A stretch of 64,000 nt of DNA from Fistulifera solaris (lineage: Eukaryota). Every line of letters starts with the position of its first letter. Within the stretch, counting starts at the first letter, position 1. Made by a program: the position numbers and the translations under genes. The stretch spans positions 372,001 to 436,000 of the forward strand of contig AP026127.1 in assembly GCA_030295235.1 (NCBI GenBank), written 5' to 3'. Below are positions 4,421-48,294 of this stretch, piece after piece. The notes under the pieces were generated by a model. That model was not told the origin of the DNA. It ran no database searches and saw only the letters and a program-made list of their open reading frames with translations.

Positions 4421-4429
4421 GGTACAGTA

Positions 4430-7400
4430 CAGCCTCCCGTACATTTATACCACTTCTACGTCTTTCTACGTCTCGCTATACCAATTTGGTATGTTTTTCC
4501 AGAAATACTCGAAGTAGTTTCTGCGCTAATCTACTACTTTCCGGATAGTTCGGTGAGTATTTTTGGAAAAATATACCGCCAGGGTATAGCGGATGAAGAA
4601 ATACCAGTGCCGTTTCGAAAAGTACCACTATGGCGTGAAATGTAGGAAATTCGTGGGAATTCTTCAATCACTAGTAATACGTCTGCCGCATTTTCCTTGA
4701 CGAGCACAAAAATGAGCCATCACGAAGAAAGAAAACCATGAGAAAACCGACAAGTCGCCGCGGCAAGAACATCTACGCTAACATAAAGTCGTCCTTCGTC
4801 GCGAAAGATCCCACTGCTTCGCACTATCGTGATTGTGATGCATCTATACGATCTGCAGTGAAGTGGCTTTCGTGAGATTGTCGTAAGAATTCGATCGCCG
4901 AACCTTTTGCTGAAAAAGATATTGAATGAGAAAAGGCTCCCCAAAAAGTTTTTGCTTCAGAGATATCACTTCCTAAAAATACGCAGCAAAGCAAAATGTT
5001 GTTAGTACAATGCGTTTAAGCAGTGTAAAACAGTTTCTACGTGACATGAGGCGACTTTGATCGATCATCAGAACGAACGAAACAATTAAAACAGATCTAC
5101 GCAGGCTCGTGGAACTTCAGAACCACAATTTTGTGTGCCTTCCAGTATTTAAACTCTTCTCGAGAAATCGCACGAAGGTGGCAGTCGGGCACTTTTCCTT
5201 ACTCCAGATAGAGCTAAATGGTATTCTCGATAAAATCTTTTCAATAAGGAGGTGGTAACGTGTTTAGCATTCACTCACAGCGCTCTAGATGATCTTCTTT
5301 AGAATTTTTATTCTAGCTTAAGCATCTAACGACTGCCTTGTTTCAAGAATTTTCGGTGATGTAGTCGTCATGACATTTTATAAAAATTGGAGGTATAATT
5401 AAAGCGCACAAACGAGTTGAACGGTGGCCTTCAGACTTTAGATGTCGACATAGGCTTTGCCTAATCTTATGGAGTTACGATGCTATCGGCTTTTAGGGTC
5501 TAGCCTTTAAGAGACGGCCTAGACTAATGTTCATTCATCCTTATTATTTCTAGTGTGTAGGCATCGTTAGGGTTTCGGTTAAAAATCGTTTCGGTTGCAG
5601 TACAACCAAGTGCGTAGAAAATGCGTAGGAAATCCTATACCAACCGGCACTGCTTCTGGTATATTTTTCCTGCTCATTATACAGCCTCCCGTACATTTAT
5701 ACCACTTCTACGTCTTTCTACGTCTCGCTATACCAATTTGGTATGTTTTTCCAGAAATACTCGAAGTAGTTTCTGCGCTAATCTACTACTTTCCGGATAG
5801 TTCGGTGAGTATTTTTGGAAAAATATACCGCCAGGGTATAGCGGATGAAGAAATACCAGTGCCGTTTCGAAAAGTACCACTATGGCGTGAAATGTAGGAA
5901 ATTCGTGGGAATTCTTCAATCACTAGTAATACGTCTGCCGCGATTTTCCTTGACGAGCACAAAAATGAGCCATCACGAAGAAAGAAAACCATGAGAAAAC
6001 CGACAAGTCGTCGCGGCAAGAACATCTACGCTAACATAAAGTCGTCCTTCGTCGCGAAAGATCCCACTGCTTCGCACTATCGTGATTGTGATGCATCTAT
6101 ACGATCTGCAGTGAAGTGGCTTTCAGAGATTGTCGTAAGAATTCCGATCGCCGAACCTTTTGCTGAAAAAGATATTGAATGAGAAAAGGCTCCCCAAAAA
6201 GTTTTTGCTTCAGAGATATCACTTCCTAAAAATACGCAGCAAAGCAAAATGTTGTTAGTACAATGCGTTTAAGCAGTGTAAAACAGTTTCTACGTGACAT
6301 GAGGCTTTACTTTGATCGATCATCAGAACGAACGAAACAATTAAAACAGATCTACGCAGGCTCGTGGAACTTCAGAACCACAATTTTGTGTGCCTTCCAG
6401 TATTTAAACTCTTCTCAGAAATCGTACGAAGGTGGCAGTCGGGCACTTTTCCTTACTCCAGATAGAGCTAAATGGTATTCTCGACAAAATCTTTTCAATA
6501 AGGAGGTGGTAACGTGTTTAGCATTCACTCACAGCGCTCTAGATGATCTTCTTTAGAATTTTTATTCTAGCTTAAGCATCTAACGACTGCCTTGTTTCAA
6601 GAATTTTCGGTGATGTAGTCGCTTTTCGTCATGACATTTTATAAAAATTGGAGGTATAATTAAAGCACAAACGAGTTGAACGGTGGCCTTCAGACTTTAG
6701 ATGTCGACATAGGCTTTGCCTAATCTTATGGAGTTACGATGCTATCGGCTTTTAGGGTCTAGCCTTTAAGAGACGACAGCCTAGACTAATGTTCATTCAT
6801 CCTTATTATTTCTAGTGTGTAGGCATCGTTAGGGTTTCGGTTAAAAATCGTTTCGGTTGCAGTACAACCAAGTGCGTAGAAAATGCGTAGGAAATCCTAT
6901 ACCAACCGGCACTGCTTCTGGTATATTTTTCCTGCTCATTATACAGCCTCCCGTACATTTATACCACTTCTACGTCTTTCTACGTCTCGCTATACCAATT
7001 TGGTATGTTTTTCCAGAAATACTCGAAGTAGTTTCTGCGCTAATCTACTACTTTCCGGATAGTTCGGTGAGTATTTTTGGAAAAATATACCGCCAGGGTA
7101 TAGCGGATGAAGAAATACCAGTGCCGTTTCGAAAAGTACCACTATGGCGTGAAATGTAGGAAATTCGTGGGAATTCTTCAATCACTAGTAATACGTCTGC
7201 CGCGATTTTCCTTGACGAGCACAAAAATGAGCCATCACGAAGAAAGAAAACCATGAGAAAACCGACAAGTCGTCGCGGCAAGAACATCTACGCTAACATA
7301 AAGTCGTCCTTCGTCGCGAAAGATCCCACTGCTTCGCACTATCGTGATTGTGATGCATCTATACGATCTGCAGTGAAGTGGCTTTCGAGATTGTCGGTAA

Positions 7401-8198
7401 GAATTCCGATCGCCGAACCTTTTGCTGAAAAAGATATTGAATGAGAAAAGGCTCCCCAAAAGTTTTTGCTTCAGAGATATCACTTCCTAAAAATACGCAG
7501 CAAAGCAAAATGTTGTTAGTACAATGCGTTTAAGCAGTGTAAAACAGTTTCTACGTGACATGAGGCGAGTACTTTGATCGATCATCAGAACGAACGAAAC
7601 AATTAAAACAGATCTACGCAGGCTCGTGGAACTTCAGAACCACAATTTTGTGTGCCTTCCAGTATTTAAACTCTTCTCGAGAAATCGCACGAAGGTGGCA
7701 GTCGGGCACTTTTCCTTACTCCAGATAGAGCTAAATGGTATTCTCGATAAAATCTTTTCAATAAGGAGGTGGTAACGTGTTTAGCATTCACTCACAGCGC
7801 TCTAGATGATCTTCTTTAGAATTTTTATTCTAGCTTAAGCATCTAACGACTGCCTTGTTTCAAGAATTTTCGGTGATGTAGTCGTCATGACATTTTATAA
7901 AAATTGGAGGTATAATTAAAGCACAAACGAGTTGAACGGTGGCCTTCAGACTTTAGATGTCGACATAGGCTTTGCCTAATCTTATGGAGTTACGATGCTA
8001 TCGGCTTTTAGGGTCTAGCCTTTAAGAGACGACGCCCTAGACTAATGTTCATTCATCCTTATTATTTCTAGTGTGTAGGCATCGTTAGGGTTTCGGTTAA
8101 AATCGTTTCGGTTGCAGTACAACCAAGTGCGTAGAAAATGCGTAGGAAATCCTATACCAACCGGCACTGCTTCTGGTATATTTTTCCTGCTCATTATA
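4430..8198. mobile_element. Head-to-tail trimer of an unclassified ~1.26-kb putative non-autonomous element (units 4430-5681, 5682-6943, 6944-8198)
   Basis: Three near-identical units CAGCCTCCC...CTCATTATA joined without spacer; flanked by CAGTA (4425-4429, 8199-8203; extendable to TACAGTA); subterminal inverted repeats; no intact enzyme ORF. The repeat is certain, mobility is inferred. Confidence 0.7.
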
Positions 8199-8545
8199 CA
8201 GTATGACCTTACCAGTACGGTACCTGGTATGGACGCGTAAAAAAGCATTTACTGACACCAAGAAATTTCCACTATTGGTTTTATTGTACCTTTCTGTTTG
8301 GGCTGTGACACCGGTCATCGGTCATCGTAAAAGTGCAGCGGCACTTAAATCTGTACATAAAGATTCATTGTTGAAGAAGCCGGGGAAATTTTGCTTTTTT
8401 ACCCCAAATTCTCTCGTTTGAAACACCAACAAAACATTAGAACCCACGCCACATCCCTCCTTTTATCAATCTTTCGCACTTCCCTCGCAACAACACCGAC
8501 GAAAACGCTCATTCACTTCCTTCCTTGCCCCACAAACTCTTTTCA

Positions 8546-15780: not shown

Positions 15781-16410
15781 AACGTGAAAATACAACTGGT
15801 CCGGATTTTCCGGAGACGTGTAAGTACCACACGCCCAGATTTCCTAGGAACGTGAAAAGTGCAAATACCACTCACCCAGATTTTCTGGGAACGTGAAAAT
15901 ACATTGGTCCAGATTTTCTGGACTACTTGAAAATGCCAAACTCCCAGATTTTCAGGTAACGTGAAAATACATTGGTCCAGATTTTCTGGAGCAGCGTAAA
16001 TATTACAACCCAGATTTCCTGGGAACCTGAAAATACAGCTGGTCCAGATTTTCTGGACCACGTGTAAATATCACTCTCCCAGATTTCCTGAAAACTTGAA
16101 AATACATCTGGTCCAGATTTTTTGGACCATGTGTAAATATCACTCTTCCAGATTTCCTGGAAACTTAAAATACAGCTGGTCCAGATTGTCTGGACCAAAG
16201 TAAATGTTACACCCCCAGATTTCCTGGGAATGTGAAAATACCGCTGGTCCAGATTTTCTGGACTAACCTAAATATTACACCCCCAGATTTCCTGGGGATG
16301 TGAAAATACACTTGGTCCAGATTTTCTGGACCATTGTAAATACCACTCCCCCAGATTTCCTGGAAAGTTGAAAATACAGCTGGTCCAGATTTTCTGGACC
16401 CTAACGTGAA
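15781..16410. repeat. Palindromic tandem array: 18 cores at ~34-bp spacing, 68-bp higher-order dimer
   Basis: Alternating GGTCCAGA-TTT-TCTGGACC and CCCAG-ATTTC-CTGGG cores; exact 68-bp period at 16181/16249/16317/16385. Confidence 0.95.
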
Positions 16411-21260: not shown

Positions 21261-23570
21261 TCAAAGCATGAACGCCCCACTTTTTGACTTGTTTCCCGGA
21301 GTTTCTTGGCTCGAAAAGCCATCGATATCCTCATCCTGACTTTCGTGTTTGGGGGTCGACTTCTTCAAATACTTATGACCACAATTCCAAATATCAGCCT
21401 CCATGGCGTCGTCTTCTAAAGCGCACGAGCTATCTTGTGTCTCAATATCTGAAGGTAAAAATGACGAATGCTTGACTTTCTTACGTCGCGATGAAGCAAC
21501 GGAAATGTCTTTACCGGAACCTGTCGATTGGCTCTGAGTCGCCTTGGTATTTTTGCGCTTTGTGATGACCGAAATGCGACTTGAATCATTGTCGCTCTCA
21601 GAACTATCCCAAAAACCGTCCGATTTACGTTTCTTTTCAACGGACTCGAGACTCCATCTCGAATTCTTTTTCGTTGAGAGGTTTCCAGCAGCAGTGGGTT
21701 TTGTCGACACGCTGGTGGTGTCTGAGTCGGTGTCTCTGTATTCCTTTGTTTGCCCGCCACTGAAGACATGGCGACTTGATTTATCTTGGCTAGAGCCTGA
21801 CGATCGGCTTTTTGTGACTTTGGTGATTCCGCGTTTCATGGCAACCGAAATACTGTTCAATTCAGTGTCGCTCTCAGAAGTATCAACGAGACCTTCCGAC
21901 TTCTCTTTGTTTTCTACGGAATCCTGATTCCATCTCGGTTTTGTTTTCGTCGAAAGGTTTGCAGAGGCTTTGGTCTTTGCAAGCACGCTGGTGGCGTCCG
22001 AGTCGGTCTCTCCGCAATTCTTGTTTCTCCCGCCACTGAACACTGGACGACTTAAAATGAGATCCGAGTCATCATCGGAGTCGGACGAGGGCAAGCTGTA
22101 CACATTGCGTTTGACTGCAACGTCCTCGGTTCGAGACTTATGAAGTTGACTGGGTAGGGATCGTCGTCCCTTAGCAGAAGTAAGATCGCTGAATTTAGTT
22201 TCGCTTGTCGCCAGGTCAATCACAGGGGTCTGTTGCGAGGTTCCAGCACTCTCGATAGAGTCCTTGTCAGCTCGAAACAGTTTTTCAGCGGTAGTAGGCT
22301 CGTTTCGCACACTGAAACTGCTTTCCTTTTTTGTCACGTTCTCTGTTTGACTCTTGTTGGACGTACACTTGAGACCCCCAAGATTCTTTAGAACAAGTGA
22401 CGTTGGAGGCTTTGATCTGTCATGGCTTTGCTGTATAGGTAAAATCTCTTTTTGCCTGCGAGGAGATAAGAGCTCGCGGTTCCGTTGTGTTTCAATAGAA
22501 AATCGGGAAGCCATATCGGTTGTCTTTCGCGGGCTTCGCTGCGAAGGTAGGCTATCGCTGGACGAATCGCTATCGCTAGAGCTTTCGGAATCGTCACTAT
22601 CACTTTCTTGTGCTGGTTCAGAAGAAGCCTTTCGTTTCTTTTGCGAAGAAGTGGTCGTTGCAGCAATGTTCATTATTTCCGATGGTAGATTTTCCAACTT
22701 TTCATTTGCTTTTGCAACAACGTCATTCAATAAATCCATTACTTTTTGCCTTTCATTGGAAAGCATCTTACGCTCAGCCGCAGATAGAGTGCGCTTTTTC
22801 ATTCGAAAGTTTTCTAAATCACGAAATATTCCTGGATGGTTGTATAGCTTTCCATTGTCGTACTCTTTCAATCGCCGCATACGAGTCTCTCGAGGTATCA
22901 GTTCTCCGTTGTCCAACTCGAGCGGAAAGTCACGTTTGGAAGGGTCTGTCGAAATCACTTGTGTTACACGGATCGAAAGTTCGGACCCTGCCGCAAACGC
23001 GGGATGAAAATAGTGAATGACGTCGCCCGGGTTGAGGGGCTCCTTCTGACGATCCGAGAGGGCGCACGCCATGAGCAAGTTTTCATCTCCTGCGATGCCA
23101 AGGTTGATTGCATACGGCACTTCCATCTCCTGTGTTGGTTCGATGCTTTCTGGGGGCCGCGGTGATTCTTCAACAGGCTTCTTGCTGGCTGATTGATTGC
23201 GTGTTTGTTGATTCTTCAACGGAGATGAAGAACGTTTTGAGGGTGCAGCTTTGGGTTTTCTATTTACAGTCTTCTGTTTCGAGGCCGAATTTTTGTGCGA
23301 TGAAGACTTCGCCCGGTCACGATCGTCACGGAAAGCTGTTTTTGGGGTTGCCGTTCGTTCTTCTATTTCGTCCATCATGGAGATCGTTTGAATCGCAACG
23401 CCGGGCGCTATTGACTTGCCAAGCTTCCGTTTTTGCTTCTTTGTAGACCCTTTCTTGCAGCTCGACGGAATGACGGGAGGTCTTTTCTTATCATCATCGC
23501 TTTTAACGCACACGAACGAAAGCTGTGACGCACCCTCATTTTGGGGTAGTAAAAAATGTCGTCGTGACAT
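21261..23570 (-). CDS. Hypothetical S/K-rich protein with one globular domain and a 92-aa internal duplication
   Basis: 782-aa ORF, likely ATG 23570; VFSGG...DSD...RW block repeated 276 bp apart. Confidence 0.7.
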   Translation of the reverse strand: MSRRHFLLPQNEGASQLSFVCVKSDDDKKRPPVIPSSCKKGSTKKQKRKLGKSIAPGVAIQTISMMDEIEERTATPKTAFRDDRDRAKSSSHKNSASKQKTVNRKPKAAPSKRSSSPLKNQQTRNQSASKKPVEESPRPPESIEPTQEMEVPYAINLGIAGDENLLMACALSDRQKEPLNPGDVIHYFHPAFAAGSELSIRVTQVISTDPSKRDFPLELDNGELIPRETRMRRLKEYDNGKLYNHPGIFRDLENFRMKKRTLSAAERKMLSNERQKVMDLLNDVVAKANEKLENLPSEIMNIAATTTSSQKKRKASSEPAQESDSDDSESSSDSDSSSDSLPSQRSPRKTTDMASRFSIETQRNRELLSPRRQKEILPIQQSHDRSKPPTSLVLKNLGGLKCTSNKSQTENVTKKESSFSVRNEPTTAEKLFRADKDSIESAGTSQQTPVIDLATSETKFSDLTSAKGRRSLPSQLHKSRTEDVAVKRNVYSLPSSDSDDDSDLILSRPVFSGGRNKNCGETDSDATSVLAKTKASANLSTKTKPRWNQDSVENKEKSEGLVDTSESDTELNSISVAMKRGITKVTKSRSSGSSQDKSSRHVFSGGQTKEYRDTDSDTTSVSTKPTAAGNLSTKKNSRWSLESVEKKRKSDGFWDSSESDNDSSRISVITKRKNTKATQSQSTGSGKDISVASSRRKKVKHSSFLPSDIETQDSSCALEDDAMEADIWNCGHKYLKKSTPKHESQDEDIDGFSSQETPGNKSKSGAFML

Positions 23571-33081: not shown

Positions 33082-33743
33082 CGAGAGACGCAAAACGGAA
33101 CCCTTTATTGTTCGGTTCATGACTCATGACTACTGTACAATTCAGTCTTGGCTGGCTGGCGTAAACTAACACTCCATCTCATAGTGGAAATTCAAGTGCC
33201 GATCCTCGGACTTTCGACATGAAAATAAAAAAAGCTCTTAACAAGTAGTTCAGAATCACCATTGTTGCGACTTTTTCTACCCGTAATTACAATCATATTC
33301 GCAGTTGAACGACAGTGGACGGATACGAGAGACGCAAAACGGAACCCTTTGTTGTTCGGTTCATGACTCATGACTACTGTACAATTCAGTCTTGGCTGGC
33401 TGGCGTAAACCAACACTCCATCTCATAGTGGAAATTCAAGTGCCGATCCTCGGATTTTCGACATGAAAATAAAAAAAAGCTCTTAACAAGTAGTTCGGAA
33501 TCACCATTGTTGCGACTTTTTCTACCCGTAATTACAATCATATTCGCAGTTGAATGACAATGGACGGATGCGAGAGACGCAAAACGGAACCCTTTGTTGT
33601 TCGGTTCATGACTCATGACTACTGTACAATTCAGTCTTGGCTGGCGTAAACCAACACTCCATCTCATAGTGGAAATTCAAGTGCCGATCCTCGGATTTTC
33701 GACATGAAAATAAAAGAAACTTTTAACAAGTAGTTCAGAATCA
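33082..33743. repeat. Tandem repeat, ~244-bp unit x ~2.7
   Basis: Units start CGAGAGACGCAAAACGGAACC at 33082, 33326, 33571. Confidence 0.95.
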
Positions 33744-39960: not shown

Positions 39961-40207
39961 GGGTAAGGTATTCACGCAGCCTTGGTTCTTTAAGTGATAA
40001 GGAACCAAATGGACTTGCCAGTAAATAGATTGGGATGAAAAGCGATGATGCGAAAAAAAAGATCGCAGAAAGCATCGGATTGCCCGCGAAAATAAGGAAC
40101 GCATTCTTCACAAAGTACCTCTAGTGGCTCATTCGGTATCATTCACCTAAATAAGGAATAAGCTATACGTACAAGTAGTATCAAAAGATGAATGGTATAG
40201 AACAGAA

Positions 40208-40295
40208 CGAAATAAGGCAGTGGTGTAAAATTATGACTACAAGTGTTACATCTACCACGGAGGCTTCCCCGTCTGTACTACACTCGGTTATTTCG
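40208..40295 (-). repeat. 3' LTR (88 bp; termini CGAAATAA...TTATTTCG)
   Basis: Exact direct repeat of 46926-47013. Confidence 0.93.
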
Positions 40296-40305
40296 GTCCC
40301 CTCAC
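40296..40305 (-). other. Putative polypurine tract
   Basis: Minus strand GTGAGGGGAC immediately before the 3' LTR. Confidence 0.6.
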
Positions 40306-40596
40306 GATGAGACCCGAGCTAGGGCTTCAACGTGTCCTTCATAACCGATAAACCCTTATTTCATGGAAAAACAACATAAAAACCATGACGATTCATTCAT
40401 CGAATCCATCCTTCATCATGTGGAAAATACATCAAAACCACACATCGACTTGTCCGTGGAAAATACGTCAAAACCACGTATCAAACTTGAAACTTCAATC
40501 ACTGTACCTGGACGAAAAACTTATCCCCAGGAGGCTCATCCCATCGGAATAGTAAACATAACTACCCAACCAGTGCATCGGGACCTATCGCCTGCA

Positions 40597-43500
40597 TCAC
40601 TGATGTAAAATACGCTTCACCAGTGGATCTCGTACATTCCCAGCTTGAATCTTCGTCAGAATATCTGCCAAATTCGTCTTCGTAGGCTCGTAGGATACAT
40701 CAACAATACCCATCGCAACTCGCTCACGTACATAGTGATATGCCACCGAATTGGACTTCTTCTTCAGAACTGATTCAGGAATACTCGAGTTCTTGATCAC
40801 CGACATATTGTCACCTTTGACAACCGCAGGATCTTCTACCGGCACACCCATCATCTGTAGTTTGTACCGTAGACCTTCGATTAACTCGACCGCCGTTTTC
40901 ATAGCACTAAACTCAGCACCAAATGTCGACGTCTCAATCAAGTTTGCTTCTTGCTGTACCATACTGTCAATGACCTGTTCAAATAGACCAAGACACCTGT
41001 ACGGAACGACGAGTAACATGGTCACCCGCCAAGTCAGCATCAACGAAACACGTTATTTGCACAGGCTTACCCAATGGCTTTGGACAATCCGTTGGAATCA
41101 TAGGCTTAGCATCTCGGTAAAAGTCATTCCAATCAGGTCTAGGTTGTCTGGCGTGCTCGACATACGAAGGATCGAACACAATCTTAGACCTTTCGTGTGA
41201 CCTCAAATATGCAAAGACATGCACAACCGCAGCTAGATGGCCTTTCCTTGGCATCGCACTGTGAGACGCAAGCATCGAAACTTCACCACAAATATCAACT
41301 CTTCCAAGCTCGACCATCCAGCGTAAAACCCCTATCTGCGAGTGATAAAACTGGATTTCGTCGTCATCGCACTCCGGCGATATGTCAAGCTCCTCGGACG
41401 GTACTTCGGTGGTAAAACACTTGACGCCTTCTTCGGTAAAGCCTCATCTCGCTTTTCCAACCAAAGACAAACGTTTCGTATTGCTTCCTTCACATATTCA
41501 TTCGAACTCATCGACCAACAAGGCTTTTCATCACCCGGGAATTGATGCTGACCAATCGTCGAACCCAAGTAGCGAGTTGGCTTGCCTATCGAACCTTCTT
41601 TCAGAAGAAAGTGTTGATCAAGCTTGTATAGAATAGCTTCCGGCGCCACAGAAACACACAGGATGTCATCCGTATAGACCAATACCAACTCGTAGTAACT
41701 AGTCCCATCCGCTTTCTGTGCCGGCCGTATCCATACATCGTTATCCCATTTCGACAAGGTGTAAAACTCAACGACTCATGCAAACACTCACTCAGATATG
41801 ACCTCCACGCAGCTCCAGAACTCTTCAGTCCGTGAAGAGCTTTCACGATTTTCGACCTTTGAACTGTGGACCAAATTCGGCACCGCAAATAATAAAGATT
41901 CGCTCTCGAACTGGTGCATTCAAGTACGCATTTCCAATATCTGCCGCCATAATGTCCAAATCGTTCAATGCCGCGAAGTAGGAAGGCAATCCGCACGCTT
42001 TCTCTCGATTCAACACTAGCATAGGTAATCGAGCTCGGCGGATCCGTCATGTGTCCCCCCTGCTACGAGGGCGGGCCTTCCGTGTGAAATCTGGTTTTAT
42101 ATCAAAAACCATGTGAACCCCAATCTTGGTAAAACCAGCAGGATCGGGAGCGTCTTCGTCAAGGATCTGAAACGCCTTAGCTACCGCGACGCATCTCTTC
42201 GCGAATCGCCGCCCCAAAAGTCAGTTCCCGTGAGCGATCAATCGCCAATGCTTCTTCGACTGTCTTTGGCAATGCGATCCCATATTTCTGAGTAACACGA
42301 AAGTAGCGCTTAGCCATCGCTTTGATGATCCTGGTCCTTCTCTTGAGCGTGTAGGGAACCCACCATGAGAAAGCAGGCTCCTCAGCAATCTGTCTCGCAA
42401 CAGCAAATTCAGCTAACTGTAAAGGGTGAGACTGCTTTAGGTCTTTCAGTTTCTCCCAAGTAGTAGTGCCATCATTCCATAGACAACACAGCTTCCATCC
42501 CTTGGTAGTCCGCTTAGGATACTTTCGGTTGTTGTGGATCACGAATGCCTCTTCATGCCGGAACCGCGTCGACTCTTTCTTGTAGTCCACTATTTCCTTT
42601 AGGACATAACTCGCACGCCCATGGTCATCCACTTCGGCATAGATGGCTTCAGCGATCTGATTCGCATGATAAGCCTCCACTTCACCCGTATCAAATTCAA
42701 TCTCATACAGAGCGGTATCGAGCAAAGGGTTAGGATGGTACCGGCCAATAGGATTCCCGTCTTGATCGTGCTTCCGACCTTTAACCGCATCGTACGACAT
42801 CGAAAGTCCCCTTGCGGAAGCATTACCCTTGCTGAGACATATTGATTGTATGAATCGTAATCAAACTCATCAGCTTCCTTTATCTCGGGAACTTCGGGAT
42901 CTTGCGACCGGTCGGAACATAGTATTCCAACTCTGGGGTGCGCTCGTCTTCCGGTATCTCGGTCGGATCCAAGGGCATGGCTCGGTCCTTCAGCTTTTGC
43001 TCCAACGTCATGCGTGAACTTTGCCTTCAACTCAGCAACGGCTTGGCTATTCTGTTCCTCAACTGACAAAGGGAAAACACTTGTACGGGAAATCGGTCGA
43101 CCAGAAGCGGGTAGGATCCTAGCACATAGGACATCACCGACATCGAAACTGGGACCAAGGTATCTTCCAAGATGCTTCCTTTCCATATTTTCGTCTTGAG
43201 GCGAGATAAACCAAACCCAATCATACCAACCGAACTCACAAATGTGTGAAATATCAGCGGTGTCCCCTGTCAAAAGCGTCATGCGGCACTTCACCATCTA
43301 ACTGTCTTATGGAAAGACAAGAGTGGCTCCGAACATACGCGTGGTAGACCAAACATAGGTCCCATAGACAACGTGGGGAATTCGTGCGAATCATAGCACG
43401 CCCTATACATCCTTTTCAATTCACGAATGCCGTCTTCAGCGAGGGTTGGCGTTAGCGGTGTGCTTCGATCGGCCTAATGGTCGCTTGCACTCGCTATGCC

Positions 43501-46042
43501 TCTTCGCTTAAACTCTCCTGCTGTCAACTCTCCGGCATTGTCCGGAATTAAAGTGTTAGGGACTCCGACGCTGACGAAACAAGTTGTCAAGCGTGTAATG
43601 GGCATCGCTTTTCTTTTCAATCGGGTCCACACATATCCAGTGAAAGGGGGTGCAATACACAGCCGCATATTTGTTACCCAGCAGTGAGACACATGTACCG
43701 ACCAGAATGTCGCAGTACATCTCCGTATTAAGCCGAGGATAACGCAGCTGGTACGCCAAATGGTTTGAGACGGCGCGTTCCAGAGACTGTCGAGAAGTCC
43801 CGAATTGCCCGTTCGCTGGAATCATCCCTATACTCCATCGTTTTGCCAAATCTTCGGGTGTGACATATGCTTTCCGGTTCTTCGTTGAGATTGCGGCACT
43901 TGTAAGCGAAGCAGCATACGAATCGATGTCAAAAGCTGCCGAACCGCGCTCAGCTGAAATCACAGCAATCGAACGAGCTGGCGGGACAAGCGTGCGCTCA
44001 CTCGTAACCGAACCAAGCATCCTCTGTCCCCCCTAAAACGAAGCTCAGAGTCAAGGGAAACACGCAATGAGTCCTCATCATGCTGGCGTGGTTAGAATCC
44101 ATAGGATCCCAGAACGACTTCGGAGGTGACGTTTACATGGATGCAGTCAACGTCCGAGCTCAGTTCTTTGTCGGTCGGTCGGCGAAAGTGGGGAAATATG
44201 AAATAGTCCCCATCAGTTTCAAAGGAATCTGGAGAGCTGGCTCAGAAAACAAAATAGAATGGCTCTCCGGGCGACGCGTTGTTCCGGGAGGTAGGTGTAG
44301 GAGAGGAGTTTCATTCACAACGACTTGGTTGTGCCGGGGTTGAGCGGGGCTGATCAAGTGTCGATGCATGTTTGAAAAGTAGAGTGACTGGTGAAAGAAC
44401 AAAACGTGGGTTTGCAGCGTCGTGGGGCAATCGTATGCAACCGCAACTGTACCAATGGGAACTTTGGTCACTTTCCCAAGAGAACTAATGAATGGTTCCA
44501 CCGAAACTGTTTCACGGGTATCATACACGAGAACCGCGTCTTTACCGAACGAGCAAGTATCACAGTGCGAGTCCAATTCAGCTCTACCAGGAGTCTGTTG
44601 TCGCATTGCCGCCGCGAACTCGCTGCACCGCCAGTCAAGGTCGTCGACTCATGCGGTTACCTGTCGACTCAACCACATCGTCACTATCGGAGTCAGCCGT
44701 CTCAACAGCTGAAGCATTTCGCGTTTCGGACTTAGCCCTTTCACGAGCATTGCGAACTTCTTCCTGTTTCTCTTTCGGTAACTTGATCCACTCCTTCCAT
44801 TTGTAGTACGGGACACCATCTTTGCCTCTCTTTGCTTTTCCGCCCTTTCCTTTACCAGATTTGCCGCCACCTTTCTTGTTGTTACCGCCGCCAGAATTTC
44901 TGGTAACCGAAGAAATGTTGCGAGTGGAACCACGGGTCTTTGCTGCATCTTGCTTCTTTCTATCAACCTGCTCAGCCAAGTAGTTCATCGCGCTCGAAGG
45001 TACTTTCCAACACAGCATCAGCCCGGACGCGCTCGACGCTCATCTTTAGTTCATCTGCCCAGATGTTGTCTAGAAAGATTCGCACCTTCCTATCTTCAGT
45101 CATCACCTCACCCGCCTCTTCCAAGTCCAAGAAAGCCAAGTTAAGCTTCTGACAGTAGTCTTCAAAGGTAAAGTTACGCCTTTCCATCATAGAAGACTGT
45201 CGAAAGGACTCGGTCAGCATGAGCAATGTTGCGCTTCTGATAAGAACGCCCCATATAGTGAGTCTTCAAGGCAAAATAAGCGGCGTCCATCTTTGCTGTA
45301 AGCAAAAGGCTTAACCCAATTCCAAGCTGGTCCACCGTGTGAAACCTGACGAATAACGCTCCACAGCATCATATTGTCTTCTTCATACTGGTCTCCATCA
45401 TGGCGAAAGTCGACGAACAAGTTCCGACATAGCATCAGGGACACCGAAACCTGGATCATCAACCCCTTCGATTCCATCGGGATCGACATGCTCCCGCACA
45501 AGGTACGACAAAGGCGCACCATAAGCTCCAAGGTGATTGCCAAGTACCTCGTCGATGTCTTCAATCGTCTTCCGAGCGTTTTCCACCTTCAACAACACAT
45601 CGATCTTAGGAAGATCTTTGTTGGTCTCACGCATGCGACGAATGCGCCACGCGAAAGTCCAAGCGCTGCTCCAATCGAGCAAGAGTTGCAAAGCCAGGAA
45701 CAAACTCGCTGCAAGCGGTGCAAGTGGAAAAGGAAGTAGCGAAGCTGACGAACACGGAGCTCAAGATTGACTCCGATCGCAATACCACGGTTCGGAATCA
45801 TCGCAGGTACCATCGGTGCAGCCTCCGCTCCAACCGCAGGAGGGACAAAGGCTGGGTTTGGAATCAAACCCCCAGGGTTTCGAATCTTCGTAAAGATCTC
45901 CTGAACGTACTTATCACTCCGGTGCGTCAAGTCGTCAAACGCTGGTAATGCCTTGGCCATTGATGGCCTGACGAGCTGCCGCATCCTCAATAAAGAGGAC
46001 ATCACGGAGGTAGTTGTTGAATGCAGCAAGATTGGCTGCCAT
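40597..46042 (-). pseudogene. gag-pol polyprotein, heavily frameshifted in this consensus
   Basis: Starts MAANLAAFNNYLRDVL at 46042, ends ...VKRILHQ* at 40597; fragments spread over many minus-strand ORFs. Confidence 0.88.
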
Positions 46043-46910
46043 CGTAAACAAGGAGAAAGGAGAGAAAGTTCACAAATCGGAATGCTAGGAGATAAAAACG
46101 TAAACGACGTTTTCTTTTCTTTTTGTGTGCGAAACTGCATCGTCGCTAAAACGTTTGCACGAAATTCCGACCCCTTTACTCTCCCCTTCGAGAGTGTTGT
46201 TTACTGTAGGGAACTCCAGTGTAAAGCGCCAAAAGTGCCCTTATGTACGTAAGGCCATTGTACACACTAGGCCCTACAGAACAATCGTCCACACCCTCAT
46301 TTAGCTCTGAATCCGTTCATAGTCAAAAAGACAGATCGGCCTAAACAGTATAGAACACGACCTCGGACAGGCCAAAATACACGCACAACACGATTTCACT
46401 TGCGCAACTTCTCGCGAAATCCGACGATGTTGTGCTTTGACCGCCTCTGGAGGAAAAACATCCCTCCACCATGAGGACTTCGCAACAATCGGGTGAATAA
46501 TTCACTCATTTATGTATTCTAGCATTAAAGGTGTATTAGCATGTATACGAGGCGTCCCCCATATTTTACCGACAAGTGACATAATCACTGTGGTCCGATG
46601 CATCCATCGACAGAGCCAGAACTGTCAATAAAGGAAAGCAACGGTGCTTCATAAGCGCTAATTACCTCACAAACCCAGCCATCTAATCAAGACATATGAT
46701 TAACATGATGACTCCATGGGGTCGACCTTTACATAAGGTCATGATCTCACATTTTCATGTGGACAATTGTCGACTTCCGACAACGCCGAGATCATCTCCT
46801 TGACCACTCAAGCCCAACAGTTAGTAACACATACATAAGGAACATTACTCTTACGATATTACCATTGTTTTCCTGTGTATTTCATCGTTTCAGAGGGATT
46901 CATCGCGAAA

Positions 46911-46925
46911 CCCCGGTTTTTAACC
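46911..46925 (-). other. Putative primer-binding site GGTTAAAAACCGGGG (half-tRNA-Lys(UUU) type)
   Basis: Directly follows the 5' LTR; its complement reads GG-UUUUUAA-CC, the geometry of an anticodon loop. Confidence 0.55.
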
Positions 46926-47013
46926 CGAAATAAGGCAGTGGTGTAAAATTATGACTACAAGTGTTACATCTACCACGGAGGCTTCCCCGTCTGTACTACA
47001 CTCGGTTATTTCG
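46926..47013 (-). repeat. 5' LTR (88 bp)
   Basis: Exact direct repeat of 40208-40295. Confidence 0.93.
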
Positions 47014-47152
47014 AGAAAGTATCGTCCGGTACTACAAATGGCTATGTACCCGAAAGGATAAAAATGCTGCAGATTATGAAGATTTTGATGCACTCTCGAA
47101 AGTCTATGCAGTAGTTACCAGTATTGATTAGATGAACACAAATGATTCCAGC

Positions 47153-48294
47153 TCACTCATCTTCCAACCCCAAAAGCTTGGCCGTCACCGGAGGCGATGG
47201 CACTATACCCGAAGGATTCAGCGGAAACAATTGCGCAAAGTACGAGGCACAGGCATCCGCGAGATCAATCGATTGCGACACCGCCGGATGTTCCTTCCAA
47301 CAACGTTGGAGCCACACGTGGAGATGTGGATAATCCCGGATCCGCGTATGACCTCCGGCGGCGCGAAACAAGGGTGCGTAAGCACCGTCGAATCGCACAA
47401 TGGTGGGAAGCAACCGCAAGTCGGCCACTGTGAATTGGTCACCGCACAAGTAGCGATTCGACGACAAGATGCGATTGCAACGATCCAGACCTTCTCGAAC
47501 ATCCGACGACGCCTGGTTGTATGCACTTTGCGTAGTAGCAAAGCCACACCGATACACTCCATTGTTGATTAAATTGTAGACCCAATCATTGATTTCATCG
47601 ACTTCTCGTCGTTTCTCTTCTGGATACAAATTTTTGGGACTATCCACTCCGTGCTTCTTTTGTGCCGCATCATTCAGGAGCTGTACAATTTCACTCGATT
47701 CATTGGATACAATCGTTTGACTTCGTACATTGACGAGCAAAGGAGCCGTACAACGACCTTGGAATCCGGGCGACAATGTTTCGTACAGTTCTCGCAAATC
47801 ACGACACCCTCCAAACAGACGATCGGGTTGTGTTGCGGAAAAATCCATCCTCCACGACTGGCTTGTTTCGGATTCTCTTGAAGCCGAGTCACCGATATTC
47901 TATCGTCCAGTTGCAGATACAACAGTGCGAGGAGTGTCCGCTGACACCAGGGACACGGGTTCCCTACGTACAAATGATAAGTACCCTGCTCCAAATCCAA
48001 AGGCGGTGCGGAAGAGAACGAATACGATGGTCGTTGGTAATTGCCCTTATCATCTTGGGGTGCCAATTCGACCATCATGGTCTTCCACGCCAGTTTCCAA
48101 GATTCAGATACCGTTTGTACTATGACACCTTGCGGTACGAGACCTCCTGCCAATTCCAATAGATTGAATCCCTTGTTGAGTTTTTCAGCCAGCAGACGAG
48201 TTTGTCTCGAACGATGATTCGGGTGGACGAGAAAGGCTTGACACCAAGATCCGACAAGGAGAGTTGCGCCGAGCAAAGAAATTCTGTTTCTCAT
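47153..48294 (-). CDS. Glutathionyl-hydroquinone reductase / omega-like GST (YqjG/ECM4 family), predicted plastid-targeted; frameshift ~47840
   Basis: YHLYVGNPCPWCQR, IVSNESSEI, INNGVYRCGFATTQ, ADLRLLPTIVRFD, NPSGIVP; signal peptide CQA|F. Confidence 0.9.

Follow-up and report, generated by a model that had tools for sequence, protein, structure and literature searches.

A predicted half-tRNA-Lys(UUU) primer-binding site beside the LTR of a Ty1/copia-type retrotransposon in Fistulifera solaris

The window, by which we mean the whole 64,000-nt stretch of Fistulifera solaris DNA analysed here, contains a complete LTR retrotransposon of the Ty1/copia type at 40208-47013 (6806 bp), which is read on the minus strand. 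Its two 88-bp LTRs (5′ copy, 46926..47013; 3′ copy, 40208..40295; both on the minus strand, as are all the features that follow) are 100% identical and stand in direct orientation. They have the termini CGAAATAA...TTATTTCG, with 8-bp inverted ends that read CG...CG and not TG...CA, and both LTR ends are fixed by contigs from other sequencing runs that depart from the window exactly at 46926 and 47013. A 4-bp target-site duplication, TTCT, borders the element on either side (5′ copy, 47014..47017; 3′ copy, 40204..40207), as read from the flanks and from an empty-site contig in run X2 that has a single AGAA. Immediately internal to the 5′ LTR lies the candidate primer-binding site (PBS), GGTTAAAAACCGGGG (46911..46925; core of 14 nt, 46925-46912), recognised by its position, its uniqueness, its geometry and its unchanged state in other contigs. 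The open reading frames outline a long untranslated leader (46141..46910), the limit of which towards gag is approximate, and then a gag-like region of several broken frames (44613..46140), which is assigned by position only and has no match in Pfam. The pol region (40600..44612; protease/integrase region, RVT_2 reverse transcriptase and RNase H) emerges as eight tblastn pieces in three frames when compared with an intact relative, P0001. Finally, a polypurine tract, GAGGGGAC (40296..40303), adjoins the 3′ LTR; this motif also precedes the LTR start in the related loci L001, L002, L007, L031, L003 and L040. Elsewhere the window holds tandem arrays unrelated to the element: three units of ~1.26 kb at 4428-8201, ~68-bp units at 15837-16399, a 276-bp pair at 21508-22053 and ~244-bp units at 33082-33718.

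The best Pfam match of the window's own pol fragments is RVT_2 at E 0.16. P0001 (1348 residues), which is 97% identical to the window element over its last 113 residues, has a significant RVT_2 match at residues 839-1033 (E 1.1e-14, above the cut-off). Since P0001 carries RVT_2 and aligns with 40600-44612, we assign the element to the Ty1/copia type. A database search with the element's last 151 residues returned 1293 relatives at E ≤ 0.001 among 1582 candidates; PF07727 (RVT_2) is found in most of the 120 relatives listed, including every full-length one, and the intact relatives P0001-P0003 (1346-1348 aa) show 91-97% identity to the window element. Neither P0001 nor any of the 120 relatives listed has a Pfam match other than RVT_2, be it to integrase (rve), protease or RNase H, and an integrase was found neither by Pfam in the window pieces and P0001 nor by a PDB sequence search. 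Some 840 residues upstream of the reverse transcriptase in P0001 leave room for one. The clade may be that named CoDi. The main text of the diatom CoDi paper contains no occurrence of 'tRNA' or 'primer binding' (PMC2806351).

We compared contigs of four public runs (X1, X2, X3 and X5) with positions 46000-47300 of the window. In run X2, a contig matches 47014-47279 with 0 differences over 266 nt and then continues into the 3′-LTR flank, with one AGAA between; the insertion is therefore polymorphic. Summed contig depth, which is not a copy number, reaches ~217 over the leader and ~1300 over the LTR in run X1, against 16-31 over the flanks, and in both X1 and X2 the depth over the LTR is several times that over the internal region, which suggests a multi-copy family with many solo LTRs. 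With its identical LTRs, its empty site and this contig depth, the family is young, multi-copy and active-looking. The internal region of the window copy itself is split into many reading frames. Single bases of the window are missing from the runs at 46183 (X1, X2 and X5) and at 46098, 46101 and 46110 (X2, X3 and X5), and so the frame breaks may be assembly errors in a repeat, or else private to this copy. At 46086 the window has T, and the runs that cover this place have G.

The PBS is unchanged in the contigs that bridge leader, site and LTR, which come from three of the four runs and from three studies: X1 record 4 (46355-46948), X2 record 10 (46331-46948) and X5 record 24 (46773-46974). 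These contigs contain one, one and no other letters, respectively, none of them inside 46911-46925, and no variant letter is listed within those bounds for any of the four runs. The majority sequence of the family thus keeps the PBS, a conservation seen only among near-identical copies that are collapsed in the contigs; within that compass, the sequence-only reading, which had pointed to conservation across copies as a check, is borne out. In run X1 there is also a variant without 46594-46909, a deletion that begins one base past the 15-mer. The contigs of run X3 end at 46883 and restart at 46912; X3 record 20 (46912-46947) has five unspecified differences and then passes into unrelated sequence, and although too short to count, it may represent a second family that shares the site.

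These data bear on the idea that the site is a decayed PBS in a dead relic, without present function and arm-like in shape by coincidence. It would suit the many broken frames of the window copy, and no run on record as RNA contains the stretch (X1 is only guessed to be RNA, and this is not evidence on expression). Yet the identical LTRs, the empty-site allele, the multi-copy depth, the intact relatives and the invariance of the PBS across the runs' contigs all run counter to it, as does the absence from the runs of the window's extra bases at the four positions given above; we regard a relic as scarcely credible.

Read on the minus strand, the junction runs ...CCACTGCCTTATTTCG, GGTTAAAAACCGGGG, TTTCGCGATG..., with the LTR end at 46926 and GGTTAAAAACCGGGG at 46925-46911. 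The sequence-only reading, which had placed this sequence directly after the 5′ LTR and had noted that it lacks TGG, is correct to the base: TGG is absent from the 30 nt that follow the 5′ LTR, and the site is unable to pair with the 3′-CCA end of a tRNA. GGTTAAAAACCGGGG is unique in the window (one match with ≤2 mismatches; 0.12 expected; at least one in 12 of 100 shuffles). Its complement, CCCCGG-UUUUUAA-CC, can be drawn as part of an anticodon arm: a 7-nt loop (U33, UUU at positions 34-36, A37, A38) closed by GG paired with CC. We defined arm geometry as U33, a purine at 37 and Watson-Crick pairs 30-40 and 31-39; over offsets from -6 to +6 relative to the LTR end, the sequence passes at offset 0 only. 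The same geometry occurs in 1040 of the window's 127,972 14-mers (0.8%), or in 0.43% if a pyrimidine at position 32 is also demanded. It is thus unlikely that chance placed the geometry at offset 0, but a frequency of 1 in 120 to 1 in 240 is not overwhelming by itself, and the weight of the case rests on the comparative evidence below. The earlier claims that the site is the PBS of a copia-type element, and that its complement has the geometry of an anticodon arm with UUU at 34-36, agree with these findings and with the identical LTRs, the target-site duplication, the polypurine tract and the RVT_2-containing pol.

Lys(UUU) is the only reading of a loop UUUUUAA set between GG and CC. The 14-nt core (46925-46912) would then be fully complementary to positions 27-40 in a predicted tRNA-Lys(UUU), and the 15th base of the site may match by chance. 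We searched the PBS regions of the window and of two related loci (L052 and L068) with Rfam, admitting matches up to E 10; none of the three gave a tRNA match, the chance hits (SAM_alpha, snoZ7 and 5.8S) were all that came back, and in the window there was no match on or close to the site. Tf1-type self-priming was considered and is ruled out: the PBS complement matches the LTR over no more than 5 nt. We also noted that TTTCG forms the last bases of the LTR and recurs right after the 15-mer (46921-46930, 46906-46910), so that a 5-nt direct repeat brackets the site.

With 18 aligned pol proteins as the query, a metagenome scan yielded 79 related loci, at 37-62% identity to P0001. A Lys-type site was found in none of the 79, the sole TTAAAAAC/TC match among them lying within the pol-matching region of L052. 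Instead, 38 of the 79 contain GTTTATCAGACCCA or a one-step variant of it (the exact 14-mer in 34). The motif directly abuts the LTR in L052, L068 and L019, whose contigs include both LTR copies; L069 and L077 have 6-7 nt in between. Across 35 distinct sites, conservation is 97% at base 14 and drops to 54% at base 15, a sharp boundary in a comparison whose first 13 columns are set by the search pattern itself. The complement of this motif, UGGGU-CUGAUAA-AC, has arm geometry in the same register as the window's site (U31-A39, G30-C40). The site, which we call Ile-type, has C opposite position 34; this would be the expected partner of an A34 edited to inosine, just as Neumann et al. describe for the plant Bianca lineage (PMC6317226). 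A second Ile form, TGTTATCAGCACCA, is present in L001 and L002 and decayed in L004 and L005. Between the two forms the stem pairs 31-39 and 30-40 change from U-A and G-C to G-C and U-A, and remain paired: the changes are compensatory. The loci nearest to the window's family are carriers of this second form. The element's LTR and leader have no nucleotide similarity to the 79 loci, the first match beginning at element position 2731, and no relatives of the element were found in viral contigs.

We next consider an alternative in which the PBS is genuine and the primer is another small RNA, or initiation is of a hairpin type similar to the 'conserved hairpin site' of GalEa. GGTT...AACC within the site is self-complementary, and GGTTAAAAACC can fold on itself; this hairpin is equally expected if the site pairs with a tRNA, in that any anticodon arm is self-complementary in this way. 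For the fungal GalEa copia elements, the accessible text of the source describes a palindromic site at the same place and no tRNA-type PBS (PMC5445492). Moreover, a subgroup of loci that adjoins the window's family carries some other conserved sequence after the LTR (AGCTCATRTT...-like; L007:4890-4930, L028:4515-4550, L033:255-290 and 6915-6950), which lacks anticodon-arm geometry in register, and the host's tRNA-Lys(UUU), as the pairing partner, is a predicted one. On the other hand, the closest relatives that could be resolved have tRNA-Ile-type sites in the same register, Rfam returns nothing at or near the site, and the site has no complementarity to the LTR. A primer other than tRNA-Lys is, on this balance, unlikely.

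Do such arms occur in real tRNA genes? There are no tRNA genes in the 64-kb window or in the 79 related loci. In viral contigs, the complement of the Ile-type 14-mer coincides with positions 27-40 of tRNA-Ile genes in 3 of 15 pattern hits, namely an Ile(aat) gene on a giant-virus contig (L150) and two Ile(gat) genes (L144 and L156). We regard a half-tRNA register that ends at position 40 as well supported for the clade. As a proxy for the Lys arm, we scanned viral contigs for CCGGTTTTTAACCGG; 3 of the 63 hits are tRNA-Lys(ttt) genes with U32 (L115, L128 and L134). These genes, which are on viral and not eukaryote contigs, share 13 nt (positions 28-40), not 15, with the complement of the site. 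Genes for tRNA-Lys(UUU) with 13 nt of the predicted arm therefore exist in nature; a host tRNA with C32 would have one mismatch to the site. The arm of the second Ile form gave 48 hits in viral contigs, none inside a tRNA gene. A 17-mer, TGGTGCTRATAACACCA, is common to 48 viral contigs (L158-L205), and ARAGORN calls no tRNA gene that contains it.

The primer might also be an organellar (bacterial-type) tRNA-Lys(UUU) in place of the cytosolic one. The sole matching tRNA-Lys(UUU) genes found here come from viral contigs; that of L115 is 269,547 nt long, and one of its genes encodes CCA, a bacterial-type trait. However, reverse transcription of LTR elements occurs in cytoplasmic particles, and the full predicted arm, CCCGGTTTTTAACCGGG, with its perfect 5-bp stem, is in no tRNA gene among the 120 prokaryote matches listed. 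We consider an organellar primer very unlikely, and return to a cytosolic tRNA-Lys(UUU).

We placed the element among its relatives with a quick maximum-likelihood tree of the RT-RNase H region, with SH-aLRT support. The tree has 65 rows (61 loci and P0001-P0004, which represent the window's element by protein identity only); 18 loci with short or interrupted matches were left out, and the midpoint root serves for drawing only. Ile-type sites are found in both halves of the tree. P0001-P0004 fall in an 11-row group (support 96) with loci of the second Ile form (Ile-II), adjoining L003 (Ile-I). The simplest reading of this tree, which has no established root, would be that a Lys-type site has replaced an Ile-type one within the clade. 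The sequence-only reading had derived the window's site from the iMet mechanism of copia and Ty5, switched to Lys(UUU). Its half-tRNA register holds up, given relatives that match real tRNA-Ile, but not its starting point: the tree neighbours are Ile-type, so any switch would have been from Ile to Lys.

Also instructive is L052, at 118-182, where the LTR end and the 14-nt site are followed by 25 nt complementary to a tRNA D-arm and acceptor, then by 12 nt of LTR end and by the site again. This insert, in which Rfam recognises no tRNA, looks like a fossil of plus-strand synthesis that had run through a half-tRNA primer. A close relative, L064, is without the insert, and L068 (1002-1040) has a tRNA-like stretch after the site that is more decayed than that of L052.

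The reading that we prefer, at a probability of roughly 0.6, is that the 14-15 nt after the LTR are the PBS of an active-looking Ty1/copia family that would be primed by a 5′ fragment of tRNA-Lys(UUU). Half-tRNA priming of the window's element is likely, and is supported by the observed position and geometry of the site, its invariance among copies and the register it shares with relatives that match real tRNA-Ile; which tRNA the host supplies, where it is cut and by what nuclease are matters that we infer beyond this. The general replication scheme of LTR elements is established, and, applied here, it would proceed as follows. The site would pair with positions 27 (or 26) to 40 of the host's cytosolic tRNA-Lys(UUU), a stretch that takes in the 5′ half of the anticodon stem, the entire loop and the two bases that open the 3′ strand. 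To supply the 3′-OH on which reverse transcription depends, the tRNA would have to be cut after position 40, its 5′ part serving as the primer. Extension of this primer through the 88-bp LTR would yield minus-strand strong-stop DNA; the plus strand would later recopy the last 14 nt of the primer, renewing the site in every cycle. Such recopying would explain the sharp boundary of the site, and a halt of copying at position 26 would be in keeping with the length of 14 nt in the relatives.

The sequence-only reading had further suggested that transposition might be coupled to tRNA cleavage under stress. This finds no support: stress-induced tRNA halves arise by cleavage within the loop and bear a terminal cyclic phosphate, and the primer envisaged here needs a 3′-OH after position 40, in the stem. 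For Ty5, the cut in the tRNA is attributed to RNase P in the accessible text of a review (PMC5371799).

That same text treats half-tRNA priming as established for Drosophila copia and yeast Ty5. In those elements, as in the window's, a PBS devoid of TGG adjoins the LTR and base-pairs with the anticodon stem-loop (PMC5371799; bioRxiv 10.1101/2025.04.25.647736, each as far as its available portion goes), and a 5′ tRNA fragment whose 3′ end is newly made acts as the primer, a feature we infer for the window's element. The anticodon, however, is CAU (iMet) there and would be UUU (Lys) here. Half-tRNA primers are also reported, in the available part of the source, for plant Osser, Bryco and Gymco-II (Met) and for Bianca, a plant Ty1/copia element (Ile(IAU); PMC6317226). 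Bianca's half-tRNA-Ile with inosine 34 resembles the primer predicted for those relatives of the window's element that have C opposite position 34; the window's element itself has a Lys(UUU)-type in place of an Ile-type site, and the likeness is one of primer type. In the fungal copia element FunCo1, the PBS is described in the accessible text as complementary to an internal region of tRNA-Lys (PMC5445492). We read its printed PBS, ATTAAGAGTCT, as pairing with anticodon CUU and ending at position 39, whereas the window's element would pair with UUU and end at 40, and the host groups differ. Lastly, an Arg(UCU)-type precedent, set beside the window's element by its description in the available text (PMC4139406), likewise uses a tRNA other than iMet through an internal region, although the tRNA is a different one.

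A full-text literature search with the letters of the PBS and of the predicted tRNA returned unrelated primers only, and half-tRNA use of the Lys(UUU) isoacceptor appears, as far as this search showed, not to have been reported yet. Novelty, which the sequence-only reading had implied, thus survives for the Lys(UUU) letters, absent from the literature searched; it does not extend to an internal tRNA-Lys PBS (PMC5445492) or to half-tRNA-Ile and half-tRNA-Met primers (PMC6317226), which the accessible texts of these sources already contain. No new mechanism is proposed here, since half-tRNA priming with Met and Ile, and internal PBSs for tRNA-Arg and tRNA-Lys, are in print. Few of the ways in which an LTR retrotransposon depends on its host are legible in sequence, and the choice of primer is among them. 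If our reading is right, tRNA-Lys(UUU) would join a short list of half-molecule primers, and the primer would have changed in a clade whose other members retain an Ile-type site across wide divergence. With its bounded 14-mer, its compensatory stem changes and the copied tRNA half in L052, this clade would offer a clean natural data set on how a site tracks the host tRNA.

A broader conjecture can be built on these cases. The tRNAs concerned, namely iMet, Ile-IAU, Arg-UCU, the tRNA-Lys that we read as CUU, and Lys-UUU here, would all share U36-A37-A38, and the iMet, Ile-IAU, Arg-UCU and tRNA-Lys primers all carry t6A37. Half-tRNA priming may then be limited to tRNAs that read ANN codons, with the 14 nt set by a cut after position 40 and a block at 26, a recent switch from Ile to Lys in the window's family, and a host nuclease that recognises such arms. 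The proposed block at position 26 has a parallel in m1A58, which sets the 18-nt PBS of retroviruses. Taken jointly, these propositions are doubtful.

In a general scan of the related loci for conserved arm-like 14-mers, most of what was returned consisted of coding k-mers of close relatives. The scan also brought out one 14-mer, GGCTCGTAGCCGGG, that is common to L027, L043, L045, L047, L048, L049 and L060 and has arm geometry, with the anticodon, by position, being ACG.
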